Positions 35,962 through 57,489 of a stretch of 64,000 nucleotides of DNA are shown one piece after another. The stretch's first letter is position 1. Each line of letters begins with the position of its first letter. Made by a program: the position numbers and the translations under genes. Source of the DNA: Candidatus Thorarchaeota archaeon (GTDB lineage: Archaea > Asgardarchaeota > Thorarchaeia > Thorarchaeales > Thorarchaeaceae); assembly GCA_019057475.1 (NCBI GenBank), contig DXJO01000008.1, positions 82,621 to 146,620 of the forward strand. The letters are read 5' to 3'. Below the pieces are notes generated by a model. It was given only the letters and a program-made list of their open reading frames with translations, made no database searches and was not told where the DNA came from.

Positions 35962-36017
35962 TCGTTTTTGCGCTCTAGTTTATATCTCCCACTGCTGTGA
36001 TAATAGTTTGATTGAGT

Positions 36018-36512
36018 ATGTCTGAATCTTCAGAAGGTTGGGGGCGGGTCCTCAAGGCATTCGATGATTGGATCTCCTACGAAAGCTCAGAGTTTGCTCC
36101 ATGGACTGCATACTTTTCCCCAGAGAATCTGCGTGACCTTACTGACAAGGAGCGGATGGGTTGGATGCACTCCATGTACAGTGAGGTGATTCCAGGACGT
36201 GTTGAGAGCTGTAAATCGGTCGCTGTTGCTTTCGAGGACTTTTTGCCATATATGCCCGACCCGGCGTCGATAGAGACCGTGCGGTCAATGATTGACTTGA
36301 GCGCAAGAATACAGGATGGCATGCTAGGCATGAGTGATGTCATAACTACCATGATGGAGGAGTACAAGGTTGGAGGACTTGATGAAGCCTTTCACTACCT
36401 CTCATCTCTCGCTGAAGCTGAAGAAGACATTCGGCACCACATGACTCTCTATAGTGCGGGATTTAGGAAGCTGAAGAAGTTGGGGCTCACAATGCCTGAG
36501 GAAATGACGTAG
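36018..36512 (+). CDS. Hypothetical alpha-helical protein
   Basis: 164-aa ORF divergent from the nuclease gene; TTTATAT box at about 35979. Confidence 0.7.
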   Translation: MSESSEGWGRVLKAFDDWISYESSEFAPWTAYFSPENLRDLTDKERMGWMHSMYSEVIPGRVESCKSVAVAFEDFLPYMPDPASIETVRSMIDLSARIQDGMLGMSDVITTMMEEYKVGGLDEAFHYLSSLAEAEEDIRHHMTLYSAGFRKLKKLGLTMPEEMT

Positions 36513-36651: not shown

Positions 36652-37116
36652 GTGATAACACAATGGGTTTTGGAAGTAAAACCACAACCTCGGCCCATCG
36701 ATGTCGGGTCGCAGAGTCAACAGGTGAGTGTCAAATTAGCCAACGAGGCGAATGTGTTCTCCAGTAGCCATCAGGTTTCTGAACAGTTCACTCATACTGC
36801 TGACAAGCCTACTTTTGAGAGTCTTGCTGCATCATTCCTACGGTTAGCCGACCTAAGGTTGAGCAGCACTCAGAAGACCGTCTTGAGAATGAGTGCCCAA
36901 CTCTTGGAGCACCATCGTCTAACGGTTACTGGGCTTGCAGATTTGCTATCCCGACGAAGCACTGTTCCATATTCGACTGCGAAATGGAATCTGCGTTCTT
37001 TGATGGACTTGGGGCTGCTTGCTGGGGGCAATGCCCAGTGCAGAGGATTGCAAGCAAGTCTGACCCCCTCTGGGCGGATGTTAGCTGCATATCTCGAAGA
37101 ATCTGATGTAGACTGA
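36652..37116 (+). CDS. Winged-helix DNA-binding protein
   Basis: LSSTQKTVL...TVTGLADLL...YSTAKWNLRSLMDLGLL...LTPSGR. The true start may be GTG 36754. Confidence 0.7.
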   Translation: MITQWVLEVKPQPRPIDVGSQSQQVSVKLANEANVFSSSHQVSEQFTHTADKPTFESLAASFLRLADLRLSSTQKTVLRMSAQLLEHHRLTVTGLADLLSRRSTVPYSTAKWNLRSLMDLGLLAGGNAQCRGLQASLTPSGRMLAAYLEESDVD

Positions 37117-37162: not shown

Positions 37163-37202
37163 GGTGTCCGACAGTCCAATGAAGATATCGAGGGACTCCT
37201 CG

Positions 37203-37246
37203 TGCTCTGCCGGTGTTGCATTGCTTTACACGCCGGCTTCACTGCA
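37203..37246 (-). promoter_or_regulatory. Putative eukaryote-type SECIS element overlapping the stop codon
   Basis: RNA 5'-UGC AG UGAA GCCGGCGUGU AAA GC AAU GC A ACA CCGGC AGA GCA-3': UGA/GA K-turn core, 11 nt to unpaired AAA, apical mini-stem. Confidence 0.72.
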
Positions 37247-38042
37247 TCTTCTTGCTGAAGAGCTCCCATGCCTTTGGAATGAGAGCCTCCGCATCCTCGT
37301 GGCTGATCCCTGATGAGATCACGACATCGACGAACTTGCTCTCGCCTTTGTCAAGGGTTCCAAGGTTCCACTGCACTGCGACTGCAACATCCCTTGGTCC
37401 CAGCTCGAGGTTGTTCTTCAGGTCGCGGTAGGTATCTGTCACCTTTAGCTTCAGCGGAGGCGATATCTCCCAACCGGCTGGCTTGGGCTTTGAGGCCAGT
37501 TCCACATGGAGTGGCGCTTCATCCCAGATCCGCATGACGCCTGTTTCTGGGTCGAATCTAGCCATGTCGTCCCTGTAGCTGGGCGGACCGCCAATATCGA
37601 AGTCCATCAGGTTGTAGACCCTCAGGTCTTCCAGTGGCGAACCGCTTATATTCGTCGTCCGATGGCGCATCAACAGGAATGGCCTGTTGAAGGTCCACAA
37701 GGCGATATCGAACATGGCCATTGGGACAGTCTGACCCTCTGGAGTGTATTCCAGAGCCAGTTCGAACCGTTTCTGCTTGTACTCCCTCCGCTTCACGGAA
37801 TAGGACTGCTCTTCTGTGGACATAGCACAGAAGACCTGTCCGCCGCTTCTGAATGTTGACCAGAAGCCACTTCTGTACCCGGCGGGATTCCGAAGCAGTA
37901 GGCGGTCTTTGCCGGTGGGATCAATCAAGCTGAGGCGTTTGATGTAGAAACCTAGGCGACCTTTTCGTCAGCTTGTGCACTCGACATTGTACGCGAGGTC
38001 AAGCCTAGGACGTCGGCTGCCAGTCTCTAGTATCTCAGACAT
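37239..38042 (-). CDS. Candidate selenoprotein, 267 aa (N-terminal CxxU; beta-sandwich-like body)
   Basis: ATG 38042 with AAGTGA SD-like site reads MSEILETGSRRPRLDLAYNVEC-T-S-UGA(37968-37970)-RKGRLGFYIKRLSL in frame into the track ORF 37239..37928; SECIS-like hairpin at the 3' end. Confidence 0.75.
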
Positions 38043-38184
38043 GACCGATCACTTGTTCCTATGCACCATCACTTTTATTCAGGTCTTGATATAAATCTGG
38101 TCAGATGTGTGTACATGCTTTGCGAGGTCGCAAAGTTGATAAAGCGCATTCAGAAACCGAGGCCCGATTAGGTGAGCTTCCCCT

Positions 38185-39420
38185 GTGACCACTCTTACTG
38201 TCGACCAGCTCGACAAATGGTATCGAAAGCGCTTGGCAACGCAGTCGAAGGACTTCATCAAACGCGCTGAGAAAAGCCATAAGAATGTAAGCCAGACTCT
38301 CAAGGATGTTGGGACGATTGCAGGGGATCTGGAAGACAATGCAAAAGACGATTCTGAAACCATTGGGATTGCCAGCCGATTTGCAATGAAACTGGACGGC
38401 ATTGTCAAGAGATTCGAAGTTAAGCAGGATATCACATACGAAAGCACTGAGGCCATGCAAGAGGAGATTCAGCGCTTTATCCAGGAGTTGTGGGGTGCCG
38501 GTGCTCGCTGGATTCGCAGGATGGATAAGAGGCACAAGAATACAATCAAAATGCTTGACACCTACATGAAGGAGCTTTCTAAGGAGATGAAGGTCCTTGG
38601 TAAGTTGCTTTACGAGTTCAGCTGGGTCAAGGACTTGGAACGCATTGGTGGGCGAATCCAGACATTGAGCGAACTAACCTACAGCGCTGAGGGGTTCGAG
38701 GAGCAGATCCGTCAGATTCAGCTCAAGATTGACGCGGCCACGAAAGAGCATTCAACTGCTGCGCAAGCTTACAATGAATTCACTGAAACATCTAATGTCG
38801 CAGAGCTGCTCTCGCTAGACGAGGAATCGGAGCACATCGCTGCGCTGCTCCGGATGAGGCTCAGCCCTTTGAAAAAACAAGTCAAGAAGTTCATGCAGCG
38901 TGATACCGGTGTGAGGGTGTCCCCTTCCAGTCAGAGAGCATTGGCCAATTACTTCGAGGATCCTCTGACTGCAATAATTGCAGAGCCTGATGGCACTCCT
39001 GGCTTAGTTGAGGGTCTAGAAGGCTTGCAGAAAGCTCTTGACACCGGCAAGTTGAAACTTAAGGACCGGCTAGCACGTCGTGCTTCTGAGGAGATTGAAG
39101 CGATAAAGAATGGCTCCATAAGCAATCTTCAACTACAAGCAAAGGAACTGGACGAGAAGCGTCGAACTTTCGCAGGGTCAGATGTTTACAAGAAAAGCGC
39201 CGCCCTCGCAGAGCGTTTGAACGAAGCTTCAAGGAACTTGGAGTATCATACGAATGACCTCCTAAAGGTTGGAGCTGACATTAGGAAACAGATAGCTCGA
39301 GTTGAAGAATTCAAAACACGCATTGAATCCGAGATACTGGAATTCTTTGAAGACACAATCTCAATTAAAATCGATAAGCTAGGTTTGGAGCCATTACTGG
39401 CACGTTGCGTCGTTAGCTGA
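38185..39420 (+). CDS. Coiled-coil hypothetical protein
   Basis: 411-aa helical, charge-rich ORF; AGGTGA SD before the GTG. Confidence 0.8.
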   Translation: MTTLTVDQLDKWYRKRLATQSKDFIKRAEKSHKNVSQTLKDVGTIAGDLEDNAKDDSETIGIASRFAMKLDGIVKRFEVKQDITYESTEAMQEEIQRFIQELWGAGARWIRRMDKRHKNTIKMLDTYMKELSKEMKVLGKLLYEFSWVKDLERIGGRIQTLSELTYSAEGFEEQIRQIQLKIDAATKEHSTAAQAYNEFTETSNVAELLSLDEESEHIAALLRMRLSPLKKQVKKFMQRDTGVRVSPSSQRALANYFEDPLTAIIAEPDGTPGLVEGLEGLQKALDTGKLKLKDRLARRASEEIEAIKNGSISNLQLQAKELDEKRRTFAGSDVYKKSAALAERLNEASRNLEYHTNDLLKVGADIRKQIARVEEFKTRIESEILEFFEDTISIKIDKLGLEPLLARCVVS

Positions 39421-39421
39421 C

Positions 39422-40261
39422 TTGAGGTGCGCAGCCTTGCGAATTCTTGTAACATCGGAAAAGGATATCGCCAGCCAAACGATTCGAAACGTCCTGATAG
39501 AAGAACATGGATTCCTGGAAACCGGAGATACATTCGAGGGCAATCCGATTCTATCATCAGATGAATCGATCTTACTGATTACTTCTACTCGTGACATGAT
39601 TTTCTGTAACCATCTGGAGTCGCACTTTGATGCCGAAGTGTTCATCTTCTGTTCGCGCCACAGGGCTGAATCCGGACAACCTGCCTTGCTGGTCCACAGT
39701 ACAGGCAACCTTGGTCAAGAAGCGCTCTTTGGTGGTAATCCCCAACATCTCTCCGTATCAACAGCATCTCTGGTAGCAGTCGCTCTGAAACGGCTTTACA
39801 AAGAACAAGCAGATCGCAAATTGGATGCCTTCGATGTGACAATGGAAGTCACACACCATGGGCCCACCACAATGAATGCCCCCCTGTTGTTTATCGAACT
39901 GGGCAGCGATGAAGCCCACTGGCGACACGAGGAAGGTGCGCGTGCAGTTGCTGCAGCGGCACTCGACTGCGCAAGAGAGCCGTTTGCAAAAGATGCAGTC
40001 ATCGGGTTTGGGGGTACACACTACGCCAGCAAATTCAACAAATTAGTTTTGGAGCGCAATCTGCGTGTTGGTCATATGGCTCCGAAATACGCAATACCTG
40101 GTCTAACTCGCGATGTTGTACTTCAGATGATGAATAGGTCTCGCGAAACCGTGAAGACCGCCGTTATCGATTGGAAAGGCACAAACGCTGAGCAAAAGGC
40201 GCACCTCCTCCCGCTGCTTGAAAGTCTTGGCCTGGATGTTGTGCGAGCAAAGCGCGTATAG
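39422..40261 (+). CDS. dtdA: Archaeal D-aminoacyl-tRNA deacylase (DTD2)
   Basis: SRH, VHSTGN, EVTHHGPT, FIELGS, GFGGTHYA, KYA. Confidence 0.93.
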   Translation: MRCAALRILVTSEKDIASQTIRNVLIEEHGFLETGDTFEGNPILSSDESILLITSTRDMIFCNHLESHFDAEVFIFCSRHRAESGQPALLVHSTGNLGQEALFGGNPQHLSVSTASLVAVALKRLYKEQADRKLDAFDVTMEVTHHGPTTMNAPLLFIELGSDEAHWRHEEGARAVAAAALDCAREPFAKDAVIGFGGTHYASKFNKLVLERNLRVGHMAPKYAIPGLTRDVVLQMMNRSRETVKTAVIDWKGTNAEQKAHLLPLLESLGLDVVRAKRV

Positions 40262-42518: not shown

Positions 42519-45500
42519 TTGGACTGTCATTGGATGGGATGCAATTTGACTGAGAATGCAGTTGTAGAATATATGCCTGTCTTGAAGGCGAATCTAGGTC
42601 TAACAGACCTTGAAGCCAAGGTTATGCTGCCCATTTACTTGGGCGGGAACATGACACCTGGCGCCGTCGCCATGATTTCGGGCGAGAAACTTCCCAGAGT
42701 GAATCGCACTCTGGGTAGATTAGAAAGTAAAGGATTTGTCGTTAAGGTCGAGGGTGTAGTGCCTATTTTCAGACCAGTTCCGGCAGTACTCTCCATGACT
42801 GGTGAGCTCAATTCTATGGTTGAGAATATCGAGGGATTGGCGCATGCCTCTCTCAGTGCATTGGACAACCAGATACAGCAAACTGAGGAGTCGGCTGTTG
42901 AGATTAGGGACACGCAAACCACAGCAAGTGAGCGCACAAGGACAATCCTAGAGAATTACGAAAACAAAATGCTTCAAACCGTGCTGAGTCAGGTAGAGCT
43001 AGTCGTCGATACTGCGACCAATGTCTTGACTGGGTACTCACAGAAAATCGAAGAAGCAGTGACAGGGCTGGACACGAGTCTGGATGACGCTCTGGGGATA
43101 AAGCTGGCGGACCTTCAAGCTGAACTGGATAAAAGCCAGATACAACTCAAGCAGGACCTCAAGGTGATATCCCGCGACTTTGACAAGGGCGTCAAACGGG
43201 AACGTGCGCCCTCACTAACTGCACTATCGGATTTCGATAAGAAAGTCCAAGCGCTCATCAAGAAGTCAAAGAACGCAGTTTCCACTGCACTCACAGACTC
43301 AGAAAAAGCAATTCAGAGTGTATCCCTTGATGTGTCCCAGAAGACAAGCTCACAGGTTCTTGGCACCATTGATAAGACTCTTGTAAATCTCGGTTCTTCA
43401 GCAGATTCCTTGACTGCATCTCTCGATCAGTTAGACAAAGATCTCAGTCAAGCATCAAGGGTCGCTCATGACTCACTCACCTCTCTGATAAGTCAAACAA
43501 GATTGATGTCGAACGAGCAGGCGGATCTAACTCGCATAAAGATTCTCAATGCATTCAAGGTCACCGAATCTGCTACTGACGCACTAGATTCCTGGAAAAC
43601 AGATGTCAGAGGAATCATGGATGTTGCATCCCACTCCATGACCGCGCAGTTCGAGCAGGCGGCAGTGACAGAGCGAAACTACCTAGATGCAAACAAGAAT
43701 ACACTTGTAGCCTATCTTGACAAGATTCGCACCATTGTTAGTGAGGAGTACAGCACTCTCCAGAGCTTGGCAGTGGCGATTGACAGTGAGTTCGCCAAGC
43801 ATCTCGACGAAACCAAAATATCGATGATGGGCTTATTCCGCAACGAGCTTGAGGCTGACGAAACAACCCTTGAGGTCGCAACTGAGAAGCTACGCAAAGA
43901 CTTGAACCGATGGTCAACTAAAACGGGGCGGTCAGTTAGAAGGAAAGCGTCGAAGGCTGGCAAAGAGGTGATCGAGGTTCTTGATGGCAAAATTGCTGAA
44001 GTAGACACCATGACCGAGAAAATGTTCAACGAGGTCAAGTCTTCGCTTGGTGCAGTCACCGCAACGGCGGGCACTAAGAACGAAACAATTCTCACTGCCA
44101 TTAATAAGAGCGCACAGAAATTCGAGAAAGATGTTGATGCTAAACTTGGGGGTGTCACTACACGTTTTTCCTCGATAGCGGACAAGTACGTCACTGGAGC
44201 GGGAGTGCTCTATGAAAATCTAAATACAAGATTCGACGACCGAGTCAGTCAGTCAGTCAAGTCCTTGAGTTCGAGCGTAGAGCGAGCACGACAAGAGATT
44301 GACACCATGATGGAAGACCAGATGACCAGAATTGATTTCCATGCCTCTGAGATTCGAAAGGAGTTCCACATGCAGGTTGAGGATATCTCAAGGCAGTTCA
44401 TTAACATGACTCAAGGATTGGAAGCTGCTTTCGGAGGGCTTGTGGCGAGTCAGATAGTCGAAACACGCGATTTCATCGCATCCACACACACCGAGTTCAA
44501 TGCAGCTCTGAATGCTGAGATGAATGCTCTTCGAGATGATTCCGAGAAGCTCCAAGTCGGGTATTCCTCAGAGATGACTCAACGCATAGAGAATCTCCGA
44601 GATTCGGCGAGTGTAATGCGCAAGACCCTAGAAGAGCTTGCCAAGGAGAAACGGCTGGAGATGTCCTCCTCCATAGCGGGCACGCTAACTCAGCTTGAAA
44701 GTGCGACAAATGAAATACAGAAATCGCTTGAGAGCCTCGAAACAGATACGATTAAGGAAATCAATGATGACCTAGCAGAGTTCTCCGAGGAATTCACAGA
44801 GGCTCTTACGACGGCCAAGACGAACCTCACTGATCAGCTTTCAAATCTCAGTGAAGCAACTACAACCGACCTGGAGCGGGGAACAAAGCTTGTCAGGGAC
44901 ATAGCAGACTCTTACTTCACGGAGCACATGGATTCCCATCAGAGGCTTATCGCAAGCACGAGCAAAAAACTAGATTCACTCTCAACTGCCATAACTACAG
45001 GATCATCCCGTAAGGTTGAGGCGTTTCAAGCGAATCTTGCGAAGTCTGAGAAGACTGGACTACGTGGAAGGAATGCTGTGAAGACCGAGATAGCGGAAGC
45101 AATAGAGAACCATAGGACAGAAGCCAGTCAGGCGTTTGAGGGGGCTGCTGCGCGGGTTGATTCCGGTCTATCGAACACAGCTGATTCTATTACAATACTT
45201 GGTGACAAGCTCAACAACGACTTGATGGCGGTTCAGCAGCAAATCGCCCGGGCAGCCAACGATGCCGCGAAGCTTCTCGCAGAGAAGAGCCGCGAAAATT
45301 TAGAAATACTTGAAGAAACGGGAGTTTCGCTCTTCCAGAAGGCGGAGGATACTTTCCGGGAGCACGCTGTAACCTTTGGCAACACAAGTGCTGCCGCATT
45401 AAAACAAGGTGAGGATAGCATGTCCGACCTACCAGAGCTCATTTCAGATATCGTGGATGGCTGTCTCAAGCAAGCGATAAGTGACGCATCGAAGGATTTC

Positions 45501-46433
45501 GGCGATGTTACGGGCAATCTGACTGGATCTTTCTCAGAGTGTGAAAGATCTGCTGAATCCGCAGCCACTGAATTCAAGGAGTTCGTGGAGCGGGTGTCAA
45601 TGAATGTGACGAAAGTTCGTGATTCGGCCTTTGAGAATTCCCAACAAAGTGTTCTCTTGGCCAACCAACATGCATCTAGGAAATTCGAGTCGATCGGTTT
45701 GGACCTAAGAGCGCGTTTCAGCACTGAATCGCATGGGCTGATTGAAGCTGTGCGAAATGACTCTGCAGCAAGAACACTACAGGTTACCAATGCAGGGATA
45801 AAAGCAACAAATGCAGCTGAAGAAACAACAGCGGTCCTGTCACAGTCGCGGAGCGAGGCGTTTAACAAACTGGCCACATCCACGGACAAGACCTTGACTC
45901 GCTGGGCGAACAACGAGAAGAAACAAGCAACATCCTTGCACAAACAAGTGGAAGAAACAGCAACCAGTTTGACAGAATCTGTCAATAGGACTGTGGAAAC
46001 TATGGAGGCAGTTCGTAAAGCTGGTGAAGGATTATTGAAGGTTTCAGCTGAGAAGACATGGTATCTGACAGGCGAGGATGAAACATGTGCTTACATCATG
46101 GACATGGTGCAGAGGGCTGAGGAATCTGTGGTCGTATCCGTTCTGAGCACAGAGTGTTTAGATCTGAAGAAACTGAGTAGGATGAAAGCACCAAAGCGAA
46201 GAGTGCTCATCGTACCCCATACAGACGAACCAGCGCTTGAGGATTTGCACGGTTGGCGAATATGGCACGTGAAGACACCTGTACTCTTTGCGGTAGCAGA
46301 TGACCGTGAGATTTTTCTAGGCGGGGCGGAGGAGTCTGACTTCCCGCTTGGCGTTGTATCCACGGACGAAGCGTACGTGCGCCTCTACCACGATGTTATA
46401 GGCCCCCGGCTTATACGTAGTCGAGTCCAATAG
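42519..46433 (+). CDS. Giant TrmB-like protein: winged helix + ~1100-aa helical repeat + PLD-like effector domain
   Basis: LGLTDLEAKV...PRVNRTLGRLESKGFV...PIFRPVP; C-terminal TWYLTG...DMVQRAEESVVV...VADDREIFLG. Start uncertain. Confidence 0.8.
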   Translation: MDCHWMGCNLTENAVVEYMPVLKANLGLTDLEAKVMLPIYLGGNMTPGAVAMISGEKLPRVNRTLGRLESKGFVVKVEGVVPIFRPVPAVLSMTGELNSMVENIEGLAHASLSALDNQIQQTEESAVEIRDTQTTASERTRTILENYENKMLQTVLSQVELVVDTATNVLTGYSQKIEEAVTGLDTSLDDALGIKLADLQAELDKSQIQLKQDLKVISRDFDKGVKRERAPSLTALSDFDKKVQALIKKSKNAVSTALTDSEKAIQSVSLDVSQKTSSQVLGTIDKTLVNLGSSADSLTASLDQLDKDLSQASRVAHDSLTSLISQTRLMSNEQADLTRIKILNAFKVTESATDALDSWKTDVRGIMDVASHSMTAQFEQAAVTERNYLDANKNTLVAYLDKIRTIVSEEYSTLQSLAVAIDSEFAKHLDETKISMMGLFRNELEADETTLEVATEKLRKDLNRWSTKTGRSVRRKASKAGKEVIEVLDGKIAEVDTMTEKMFNEVKSSLGAVTATAGTKNETILTAINKSAQKFEKDVDAKLGGVTTRFSSIADKYVTGAGVLYENLNTRFDDRVSQSVKSLSSSVERARQEIDTMMEDQMTRIDFHASEIRKEFHMQVEDISRQFINMTQGLEAAFGGLVASQIVETRDFIASTHTEFNAALNAEMNALRDDSEKLQVGYSSEMTQRIENLRDSASVMRKTLEELAKEKRLEMSSSIAGTLTQLESATNEIQKSLESLETDTIKEINDDLAEFSEEFTEALTTAKTNLTDQLSNLSEATTTDLERGTKLVRDIADSYFTEHMDSHQRLIASTSKKLDSLSTAITTGSSRKVEAFQANLAKSEKTGLRGRNAVKTEIAEAIENHRTEASQAFEGAAARVDSGLSNTADSITILGDKLNNDLMAVQQQIARAANDAAKLLAEKSRENLEILEETGVSLFQKAEDTFREHAVTFGNTSAAALKQGEDSMSDLPELISDIVDGCLKQAISDASKDFGDVTGNLTGSFSECERSAESAATEFKEFVERVSMNVTKVRDSAFENSQQSVLLANQHASRKFESIGLDLRARFSTESHGLIEAVRNDSAARTLQVTNAGIKATNAAEETTAVLSQSRSEAFNKLATSTDKTLTRWANNEKKQATSLHKQVEETATSLTESVNRTVETMEAVRKAGEGLLKVSAEKTWYLTGEDETCAYIMDMVQRAEESVVVSVLSTECLDLKKLSRMKAPKRRVLIVPHTDEPALEDLHGWRIWHVKTPVLFAVADDREIFLGGAEESDFPLGVVSTDEAYVRLYHDVIGPRLIRSRVQ

Positions 46434-55365: not shown

Positions 55366-57489
55366 TTGACCGTGGACCGACAGAAAGCCATTGAAACGTT
55401 ATTCAATCCCAAGTCTATCGCAGTAATCGGTGCATCATCTACGAAAGGAAAGCTCGGCAACTCGGTTGTGCGCAATATCATTGACAGCGGCTACGAGGGC
55501 AGAATCTACCCTGTTAACCCGAAAGCGGAGAAAATTCTCGGACTTAAAGTCTACAGGTCTGTGAGTGACGTTGTTGGACGTGTGGATGTTGCAGTCATCG
55601 TGATCCCTGCAAGATTCGTCCTCCCCGTAGTGGAAGAATGTGGCAAGAAGGGTGTAACGGCACTCGTGATTATTACCGCTGGCTTCAAGGAGATTGGTCA
55701 TGAGGGTCAGGAAGCGGAGAGGAAAATAGTAGAGATTGCCAAGAAACATGGCATGATTGTGCAAGGACCAAACTGCTTGGGCATCATCAACACCTATGCT
55801 CCATATAACGCTTCATTCTCCGCTGGAACCCCTTCCAAAGGATCGATTGCCTTTGCTTCGCAATCGGGTGCACTGATGACTGGAATTCTTGACTGGAGTC
55901 TTATGGAGAAGATTGGCTTCTCCAAGTTCGTAAGTCTTGGTAACAAAGCGCATCTGGACGAGGCGGACTTCGTTGAGGCATTCGGAAACGATCCGAACTC
56001 CACGTTTATTCTGCTCTACATCGAGTCCGTTGTTGATGGTCGCAAATTCATGAAAGCTTGCCGAGAGGTCGTTCCAAAGAAGCCCATCTTCGTTGTGAAA
56101 TCGGGGGTGAGCGCCGCTGGAGCCCGGGCTGCCTCATCGCACACGGGGTCTCTAGCTGGCAGCGATACTGCGTATGATGTGGCATTCAAACAGAGCGGTG
56201 TCAATCGTGCTGAGAATATGTCTCAGCTGTTCGATGTCGCTAGCGTGTTCGATGACATGCATCTCCCTGCAGGCAACCGTGTGGCAATAGTCACCAATGC
56301 TGGGGGTCCTGGAATTATGACGACCGACGCCTGCGAGGCTTGCGGACTAGAAATCGCTCAGTTATCCCGGACGACAATCGGGCTTCTGCAGAAAGAATTA
56401 CCTCCTGCTGCCTCAGTCTATAATCCAATTGATGCTCTAGGTACGGCTCAGCCTAAGGACTACGAGCTTTGTATTGAAGCTGCTCTGAGGGATGAAAATG
56501 TTGATTCTGTTCTTGTTCTAGTAACTCCTCAGGCCGTAACCAAAGTGGCAGAAACAGCGAAAACGTTGGTCGAGTCGCATAGGAAGTATCCTGGCAAGCC
56601 TCTGGTAGCCGTATTCATGGGCGGCAACTCAATGGTTTACCCGCGCATCATCATGAATGATGGCGGCATTCCCGTCTTCGATTTCCCTGAACGAGCAGTA
56701 CACGCCTTGGCCCAGCTCTACAAGTACACTGTGCGGAGGGACAATCTGAAGGATGATATCGTTCCCAAGTTCAAGGTTGATACAAAACGAGTTCAGAAGG
56801 TCATGGATTTGGTGCGAGCAGATGGAAGGAGCATTATGATGGGCTACGAGTCGCATGAGGTGGCTGAGGCGTACGGCATTCCTGTTGCCCGCATTCGACT
56901 GGCAACCAGTTCTGAAGAAGCAAGACAGATAGCCAAGGATCTTGGCTTCCCTGTGGTCTTGAAGATTGCAAGTCCTGACATTGTACACAAGAGTGACATT
57001 GGAGGGATTATTCTTGGGCTTGAAACCCAGCAGGAGGTCGAAGCTGGCTTCATGCAGATTCTCGAGAATGCGAAGAAGCATGTACCGAATGCAATTGTCT
57101 ACGGTGTTGATGTTCAAGAGATGGCTCCTAAGGGGAAGGAGCTGATTATTGGTTGTTCGCGAGATATCCAGTTTGGCCCGTTGATAATGTTCGGAGCCGG
57201 CGGCATCTTCGTGAACTACCTGAAGGATATTGCATTCAGGCTTGCGCCGATGTCCCGCGCAGATGCGGGGAGCCTCATCGGTGACACTAAAATGGGTGCA
57301 CTACTCACGGGTGTTAGAGGCGAGCTTCCTAGTGACATACCCGCACTGGAAGACACAATTCTAAAAATTAGTCAGTTAGTGACTGACTTCGAGGAAATCG
57401 TGGAATTGGACATCAACCCCGTGTTTGCGTACGAGAAGGGAAAGGGCATATGTGCAGTTGATGTAAAGATAACAATCGCTGGAGAGTGA
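55366..57489 (+). CDS. acd: ADP-forming acetate/acyl-CoA ligase, fused alpha-beta subunits
   Basis: LFNPKSIAVIGAS, GPNCLG, SQSGA, SSHTGSLAG (phospho-His), TNAGGPG, NPID, FPVVLKI, HKSDIGG, ELDINP. Confidence 0.93.
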   Translation: MTVDRQKAIETLFNPKSIAVIGASSTKGKLGNSVVRNIIDSGYEGRIYPVNPKAEKILGLKVYRSVSDVVGRVDVAVIVIPARFVLPVVEECGKKGVTALVIITAGFKEIGHEGQEAERKIVEIAKKHGMIVQGPNCLGIINTYAPYNASFSAGTPSKGSIAFASQSGALMTGILDWSLMEKIGFSKFVSLGNKAHLDEADFVEAFGNDPNSTFILLYIESVVDGRKFMKACREVVPKKPIFVVKSGVSAAGARAASSHTGSLAGSDTAYDVAFKQSGVNRAENMSQLFDVASVFDDMHLPAGNRVAIVTNAGGPGIMTTDACEACGLEIAQLSRTTIGLLQKELPPAASVYNPIDALGTAQPKDYELCIEAALRDENVDSVLVLVTPQAVTKVAETAKTLVESHRKYPGKPLVAVFMGGNSMVYPRIIMNDGGIPVFDFPERAVHALAQLYKYTVRRDNLKDDIVPKFKVDTKRVQKVMDLVRADGRSIMMGYESHEVAEAYGIPVARIRLATSSEEARQIAKDLGFPVVLKIASPDIVHKSDIGGIILGLETQQEVEAGFMQILENAKKHVPNAIVYGVDVQEMAPKGKELIIGCSRDIQFGPLIMFGAGGIFVNYLKDIAFRLAPMSRADAGSLIGDTKMGALLTGVRGELPSDIPALEDTILKISQLVTDFEEIVELDINPVFAYEKGKGICAVDVKITIAGE

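Follow-up and report, generated by a model that had tools for sequence, protein, structure and literature searches.

An uncatalogued Asgard archaeal gene family with a conserved in-frame UGA, very likely read as selenocysteine, on a predicted glycosidase-type beta-supersandwich

Introduction

All archaeal selenoprotein families catalogued so far have homologs among known redox or hydrogenase proteins (PMC13188914, PMC11227280). The Asgard families of SECIS type comprise SelD, FrhA/VhuU, HdrA, FrhD/VhuD, a Prx-like protein, an AhpF-N homolog and a DsbA-like protein (Mariotti 2016, PMC4989117; Huang 2024, PMC11227280). Both surveys relied mainly on known families as search queries. Huang 2024 applied these to more than 400 Asgard genomes and reported seven families; a search for novel families in one metagenome reported none (Mariotti 2016, PMC4989117). 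The catalogue of a 2026 review comprises 119 selenoprotein families for prokaryotes and 11 for archaea, none of them named for the fold described below (PMC13188914). Overlap of the stop codon with the SECIS has been described for VhuU.1 and explained by a minimum-distance rule (Mariotti 2016, PMC4989117), and a GUGA_GA variant of the core has been noted in Thorarchaeia selD (Huang 2024, PMC11227280).

Here we analyse a gene in a 64,000-nt stretch of a Candidatus Thorarchaeota archaeon genome (the window; contig DXJO01000008.1). It shares with Asgard lokiSECIS genes an in-frame UGA, a RUGA_GA core with unpaired adenines, the overlap with a terminal UGA, the existence of Cys homologs and the accompanying machinery. 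In contrast, it matches none of the seven Asgard families in sequence or fold. The CxxU motif is common to this gene and to redox selenoproteins such as SelW/Rdx, GrdA and AhpD-like proteins (PMC13188914, Table 1). However, the new family has neither a thioredoxin-like nor a helical AhpD fold, carries the motif on a beta-hairpin loop, and has a Cys that is replaceable by a distal Cys.

Reading frame and gene neighbourhood

On the minus strand, the frame runs from an ATG at 38042-38040 through a single TGA, codon 25 in the context C-T-S-U, to a terminal TGA at 37241-37239 (Table 1). The preliminary description had proposed a 267-aa selenoprotein here, and its length and all coordinates (ATG, in-frame TGA, Cys22, TTG, stop and both upstream boxes) held; the lower bound of the interval it gave, 37203-38042, takes in the SECIS. 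A TTTA(T)A-like box lies about 40-55 nt before the start in most Thorarchaeia orthologs, and GTGA or GTGG occupies the SD-like position in many orthologs. The closest database proteins are Thorarchaeota 'hypothetical proteins' of 220-241 aa that begin after the UGA, and we consider it very likely that these are truncations of the selenoprotein; databases shorten the present gene in this way to a product of about 234 residues.

Table 1. Features of the putative selenoprotein gene and its adjoining RNA elements (window coordinates)
Feature	Position	Strand	Remarks
Putative selenoprotein CDS	37239..38042	-	267 aa + stop; predicted stand-alone beta-supersandwich with C-terminal helix
In-frame UGA, codon 25, very likely read as Sec	37968..37970	-	TGA in 131/139 loci, Cys in the remaining 8; loop site by DSSP
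Cys22, proposed resolving Cys of CxxU	37977..37979	-	Found in 48/49 Thorarchaeia copies
TTG at codon 39, false start of the gene caller	37926..37928	-	No conserved start after the UGA
TATA-like box TTTATAT	38089..38095	-	About 50 nt upstream of the start; role inferred from sequence
SD-like AAGTGA (GTGA core)	38049..38054	-	Just upstream of the ATG
Eukaryote-type SECIS	37205..37242	-	GUGA core, upper stem, AAA, apical mini-stem, 3' GA
Second small hairpin	37189..37202	-	Immediately 3' of the SECIS core; in orthologs, its two inner pairs form in 26/26 and 24/26
Possible closing helix, 37251-37247 with 37185-37181	37181..37251	-	Seen in sequence, partly conserved

The flanking genes at 38185-39420, 36652-37116 and 36012-36512 (all on the plus strand) belong to no confident Pfam family and flank the gene in 28-30 Thorarchaeia loci. 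This conserved neighbourhood, a divergent 411-aa gene with convergent 154-aa and 166-aa genes, is uninformative on function. A D-aminoacyl-tRNA deacylase gene at 39422-40261 follows the 38185-39420 gene. Further along the window, 42519-46433 (+) encodes a 1304-aa protein with, by eye, an HTH-like N-terminal start and a very long helical region.

Conservation of the in-frame UGA

Across 139 full-length Asgard genome loci, the codon aligned with position 25 is either TGA (131) or Cys (8), and TAA, TAG, Trp or Arg was found in none of them; the first 29 orthologs fetched from the same family all have TGA (29/29). TGA makes up about 37% of long-ORF stops in this genome (506/1375), as against 131/131 of the stops at the codon-25 position. 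Related genomes are non-independent samples in these locus counts. The Thorarchaeia copies comprise 47 with CxxU, one with xxxU and one with CxxC; CxxU is also found in families f16 (two copies), f28 (one) and f30 (three). The largest Lokiarchaeia family, f9, has 73 xxxU and four CxxU copies, and f29 has seven CxxC copies. A further Promethearchaeota subfamily has CxxCxxC. Among the f29 orthologs are two that carry the annotation 'hypothetical', DSAG12_02345 of Promethearchaeum syntrophicum and NEF87_004727 of Ca. Lokiarchaeum ossiferum; the eight Cys loci include WP_147663390.1 and UYP48442.1. In the Cys orthologs the upstream strand is encoded in an open frame.

The region upstream of the UGA behaves as coding sequence. 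Codon 1 is ATG, GTG or ATA in 44, 2 and 1 of 47 Thorarchaeia orthologs, respectively. Divergence at codon positions 1, 2 and 3 is 0.33, 0.17 and 0.62 in codons 2-24, compared with 0.35, 0.20 and 0.61 in codons 39-60; codons 2-24 thus diverge as coding DNA does, with a bias to the third position. A conserved start codon downstream of the UGA was not found among Thorarchaeia orthologs. The outcomes that would have refuted the proposal, namely Trp or Arg at codon 25, a lack of conservation in the upstream 24 codons and the absence of Sec machinery from the genome (see below), were all looked for and not met, and the selenoprotein claim stands. We conclude that UGA-25 is very likely recoded as Sec and that the gene is a real, conserved selenoprotein gene, a conclusion that rests on comparative data without protein or RNA data.

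Two other readings of individual codons were rejected. Where one database entry shows Trp at position 25, the underlying codon is a TGA translated by code 4. The terminal UGA is not a plausible second Sec codon, since it sits inside the SECIS core and the sequence downstream is kept as RNA, not as protein; Lokiarchaeia copies terminate elsewhere, at TAA, TAG or TGA, which also speaks against it. Separately, several Lokiarchaeia orthologs (e.g. L042, L048, L050, L053, L063-L065) have no ATG upstream of the Sec codon, and such frames (e.g. L042, L048) apparently start at ATA (or GTG), about 8 nt past a GGAGGT ribosome-binding site.

SECIS element and neighbouring RNA structure

The 3' end of the gene folds into a eukaryote-type SECIS whose core UGA is the stop codon of the gene, with an unpaired AAA at 37227-37225, 11 nt from the GUGA core, and the 3' GA at 37207-37206. 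It meets the Asgard SECIS model of Huang 2024 (GA_[G/A]A core, upper stem of 7-15 bp, unpaired adenines, position near the stop). The SECIS-like hairpin of the preliminary description held: the lone hairpin is modest (z -1.7 to -2.8), and its structure covaries among orthologs. In an alignment of 26 orthologs, pairing in the upper stem reaches 90%, and double-sided changes in the named structure number 81, compared with 23 in shuffles (0/500) and at most 31 in slid controls. The UGA and AA are invariant in orthologs and the GA is near-invariant. In a pattern scan near the stop, the SECIS pattern was present in 112/118 Sec copies and 0/6 Cys copies, against a background of 5-14% of random windows in two large groups. 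The Thorarchaeia Cys copy retains a SECIS remnant by eye. The stop codon likewise overlaps the SECIS core in selD and both vhuU genes of this genome, and an RNA model of the present SECIS, run on the genome, gave no other strong site.

A second small hairpin follows directly (Table 1). Like hairpins follow the selD and vhuU SECIS (L031, G000:C29), as judged by eye, and it is likely that this is a general Thorarchaeia feature; it was not seen in published Asgard SECIS models. A closing helix would make a three-way junction, a possibility for which there are no covariation data.

Sec machinery and distribution

The genome encodes a complete Sec machinery (tRNA-Sec, SelD, PSTK, SecS and EFSec). 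EFSec, SecS, tRNA-Sec and PSTK cluster on contig C42; the PSTK match is full-length, lies under the curated cut-off and adjoins tRNA-Sec. The SelD of this genome carries its own UGA (Sec-SelD), and two small VhuU selenoprotein genes (U-x-x-C; G000:C29) directly follow hydrogenase large-subunit genes matched at 56017 and 65354. Matches to HdrA, MvhD and Prx found by family searches in this genome contain no Sec codon. A motif scan for further selenoproteins in the genome was too noisy for use.

Among 40 Thorarchaeia genomes of at least 90% completeness, the intact gene is present in 32/34 with SecS versus 0/6 without; these related genomes are not independent samples, and absence cannot be shown from incomplete genomes. 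In two of the six SecS-less genomes, in which SelD was also not found, the syntenic site still holds remnants of the gene with deletions (L030 in G010 and L174 in G373), and the G010 remnant still has the UGA and a SECIS-like remnant. The sole Thorarchaeia Cys copy comes from a genome of 89% completeness (G367) in which no SecS match was found, and it nests among Sec copies in a quick tree. The deep forks of that tree are open, and we claim no order of Sec/Cys change beyond this nesting.

The family is not confined to Thorarchaeia; it extends into several Lokiarchaeia families and another Asgard family, and is present in 82/89 near-complete genomes of the largest Lokiarchaeia family. No orthologs were found in Asgard families without SecS, and none in several SecS-positive families (f13, f7, f26, f27). 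One Lokiarchaeia genome of 91% completeness (G223) is an exception in that it has the TGA form but no SecS match. In f16, the gene lies two genes from SecS.

Other neighbourhoods are seen at the Lokiarchaeia loci L040-L053, L173 and L175. A fusion of Roadblock/LC7 with a Ras-like GTPase lies directly upstream in most Lokiarchaeia loci with long flanks. A gelsolin-like gene, recognised by eye, occurs in f30, and f28 and the CxxCxxC subfamily have a VWA gene downstream and a divergent hypD. At the f16 locus L176 (G349:C6:674000-684000), the gene stands between a radical-SAM gene and a GcvH-like gene, near SecS, FrhB-like and HdrA-like genes.

Predicted structure and fold relatives

The AlphaFold2 model is confident (pLDDT 92, pTM 0.90) and consists of 16 strands and two helices, a short one and one at the C-terminus. 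Residue 25 lies by DSSP on a loop between strands 13-22 and 29-40, where model confidence dips; strand 13-22, encoded before the UGA, belongs to the predicted domain. Confidence in the models is lowest at the Sec loop and the C-terminal Cys. A model of the P. syntrophicum ortholog shows the same fold with a longer helical tail. The best structure match is the N-terminal domain of glucodextranase 1ulv (Z 23.2, rmsd 2.5, 227 aligned residues, model range 1-267), followed by glucoamylase 1lf6 (Z 22.8) and then by GH94 phosphorylases and mutarotase-like proteins. The protein is thus predicted to be a stand-alone beta-supersandwich of the GH15/GH94 N-terminal type, with Sec on a flexible hairpin loop. 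This bears out, at the level of a predicted model and a structure search, the beta-sandwich suggested in the preliminary description.

The likeness to GH15 glucoamylase/glucodextranase (1lf6, 1ulv) and GH94 enzymes (2cqs, 1v7v) extends over the whole chain including the linker helix (Z 19-23, rmsd 2.5-3.0), and this GH15/GH94 domain belongs to the galactose-mutarotase-like fold. In contrast to these enzymes, the family lacks the catalytic helical barrel, has only 8-13% identity and possesses the Sec/Cys loop. In all fetched orthologs the chain ends after the helix, with no catalytic barrel in the same chain; the one exception to a single-domain chain is a possible VWA fusion across assembly gaps. 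The protein is not a GH15 or GH94 enzyme, and the fold does not imply carbohydrate activity. Sequence links to such enzymes are slight: a weak match to a 625-aa Asgard protein that resembles a glucoamylase by eye, and one weak TIGR01577 hit (E 0.007). The GalM (aldose 1-epimerase) fold matched with lower Z (13-16); the family alignment, taken by itself without residue-level superposition, has no invariant His or Glu of the kind that forms the GalM catalytic pocket.

Motifs of the C-terminal half (DFD-x-G, GP-x-D, LQW) are shared with an unnamed domain of secreted S8-peptidase, transglutaminase-like and carboxypeptidase-regulatory-domain proteins. These relatives are mostly long and multi-domain, with signal-like N-termini in those inspected, and the matches miss the Sec hairpin; the selenoprotein family, in contrast, is single-domain without a signal-like N-terminus. 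Such distant hits extend over no more than the C-terminal half and mostly represent domains of long proteins; the acidic motifs in common are therefore attributable to the fold, the distinguishing feature of the family itself being the Sec hairpin. This genome encodes a distant copy of the sandwich domain at residues ~608-758 of the open frame of a 1474-aa secreted subtilisin-like paralog (G000:C42:269026-273447, minus strand), a protein present in most Thorarchaeia searched.

Discussion

Within the surveys searched, the suggestion that the family is undescribed held. It is absent from the lists of 2016 (Mariotti), 2021 (Sun), 2024 (Huang) and 2026, the first two of which contain only familiar families. 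Searches of Pfam, NCBIfam release 20.0 and PDB sequences returned no family for the query, and neither it nor 22 orthologs gave a Pfam/NCBIfam hit to the published Asgard selenoprotein families; a weak APS-reductase beta hit was discarded as far below the cut-off. None of the Pfam, TIGR and NF models of the 119 families of PMC13188914 came near its cut-off, and a few table entries without models could not be compared. Atlas searches yielded only unnamed Thorarchaeia and Lokiarchaeia clusters, then GH15 and S8-associated domains. The searchable literature mentions neither the orthologs in cultured strains nor new Asgard selenoproteins, with most subscription papers outside the search. The family is therefore uncatalogued in the literature searched; its recoding machinery is known, its scaffold is unusual and its function is unproven.

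Among the collections searched, the family is found only in Asgard archaea, and it adds to the archaeal catalogue a fold missing from the published lists. Its prevalence is comparable to the 87% reported for SelD, so that it may count among the core selenoproteins of Asgard archaea, one cut short by gene callers. More than 100 new SECIS examples bear on the origin of the eukaryotic element and on what binds SECIS in the absence of SBP2. Natural Sec-to-Cys swaps occur in both cultured Lokiarchaeia, where function is testable.

We propose the following mechanism, in which the first two steps are strongly supported by the comparative data, the third is predicted and the last two are inferred: (i) EFSec with Sec-tRNA reads UGA-25 under the control of the 3' SECIS; (ii) the terminal UGA, inside the SECIS core, is too close for recoding and ends translation; (iii) the product would be soluble, with one domain and the Sec loop exposed, as predicted by the model; (iv) Sec would act as a redox-active nucleophile cycling via a selenenyl-sulfide with a resolving Cys, which may be Cys22 in Thorarchaeia and the C-terminal Cys in those Lokiarchaeia that lost Cys22; and (v) a partner protein or ligand would be bound by the sandwich. 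The redox role is inferred from the retention of a second Cys, at -3 or at the C-terminus: it is present in 138/139 copies, and the only lineage without the -3 Cys always has the C-terminal one. By analogy with selenoenzymes, this pattern is that of a catalytic Sec whose resolving Cys is exchangeable. The CxxU motif emphasised in the preliminary description holds for this gene and is not universal (73 of 77 f9 copies combine xxxU with a C-terminal Cys), and its redox role remains an inference, not a demonstration. One TGA copy without any other Cys (G009) argues against the redox reading. In our judgement the most likely role, at about even odds, is that of a redox switch or an oxidoreductase and not of a glycosidase, with both the Se-S bond and turnover inferred from the motif pattern alone.

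The main rival, which remains possible, is that Sec and the neighbouring Cys are metal ligands (Zn, Ni, Fe-S), for instance in a metal-handling or hydrogenase-maturation accessory protein, maybe across a dimer. In its favour, CxxU-G resembles a metal knuckle, and the CxxCxxC subfamily is as compatible with a metal site as with a redox pair. Three thiol/selenol residues are kept in several Lokiarchaeia lineages; hypD divergently adjoins the gene in two Lokiarchaeia loci (one a Pfam hit, one recognised by sequence only); and radical-SAM, FrhB-like and Hdr-like genes are nearby in f16. However, 120/139 copies have only two thiol/selenol residues, which would not suffice for a site within one monomer; 73 Lokiarchaeia copies have lost Cys22; and neither Thorarchaeia nor most Lokiarchaeia loci show the hypD linkage.

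It is unlikely that the protein is a redox-sensing partner of the Roadblock and Ras-like GTPase fusion, tying selenium or redox state to small-GTPase signalling. The fusion gene is directly upstream and co-oriented in 12 Lokiarchaeia loci with long flanks and two genes off in a 13th, and in P. syntrophicum some 20 nt separate its end from the gene. Other Lokiarchaeia lineages have as neighbour either a VWA gene or one that looks gelsolin-like by eye, without a Pfam hit. The GTPase linkage is nevertheless missing in f16, in f30 and in Thorarchaeia, this window among them, and Asgard genomes have many small GTPases.

Less likely still is a selenium carrier or store feeding SelD or Sec synthesis. 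Orthologs were found only in SecS-bearing Asgard families, the gene is near SecS in f16 and it decays where the machinery is lost, but any UGA-dependent gene would decay without the machinery, each protein has a single Sec, and the gene was not found in the SecS-positive families named above. Finally, a true stop at UGA-25, with a 24-aa leader and re-initiation, a pseudogene or generic Trp/Cys readthrough, is supported only by the database calls of a 220-241-aa protein after the UGA and is all but excluded by the absence of TAA or TAG (0/131), the lack of a conserved downstream start, the Cys alignment in eight open-frame orthologs, a SECIS that accompanies TGA copies and is absent in Cys copies, and the inclusion of strand 13-22 in the predicted domain.

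Inserts in Lokiarchaeia orthologs

In four f9 genomes, an insert of 28-32 nt with the shape of a bulge-helix-bulge lies one base after the Sec UGA, its central helix using the UG of the Sec codon. The inserts measure 31, 32, 29 and 28 nt in L044 (G273), L045 (G264), L049 (G235) and L156 (G239), respectively. In-silico removal at the canonical cut sites restored the frame of insert-free relatives in 4/4 cases, and the carriers fall in three places on the quick tree. On sequence evidence alone, the inserts are candidates for mRNA introns of the tRNA type, and their gain or loss seems to have occurred on more than one occasion. A frameshift reading was rejected, since the lengths differ modulo 3 and two inserts hold a stop in the body frame.

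A bolder, joint reading would see an old selenoprotein, specific to Asgard archaea and with a frequency close to that of SelD in Thor- and Lokiarchaeia, that is the first to use a glycosidase-type beta-supersandwich and acts as a selenium or redox switch on the Roadblock-Ras-like GTPase module; in some lineages, its expression would also depend on a tRNA-type splicing event one base past the Sec codon. Taken as a whole, we consider this combination improbable. As to the inserts themselves, a pattern search matched in three genomes, and in these the sole match was the site one base after the Sec codon.
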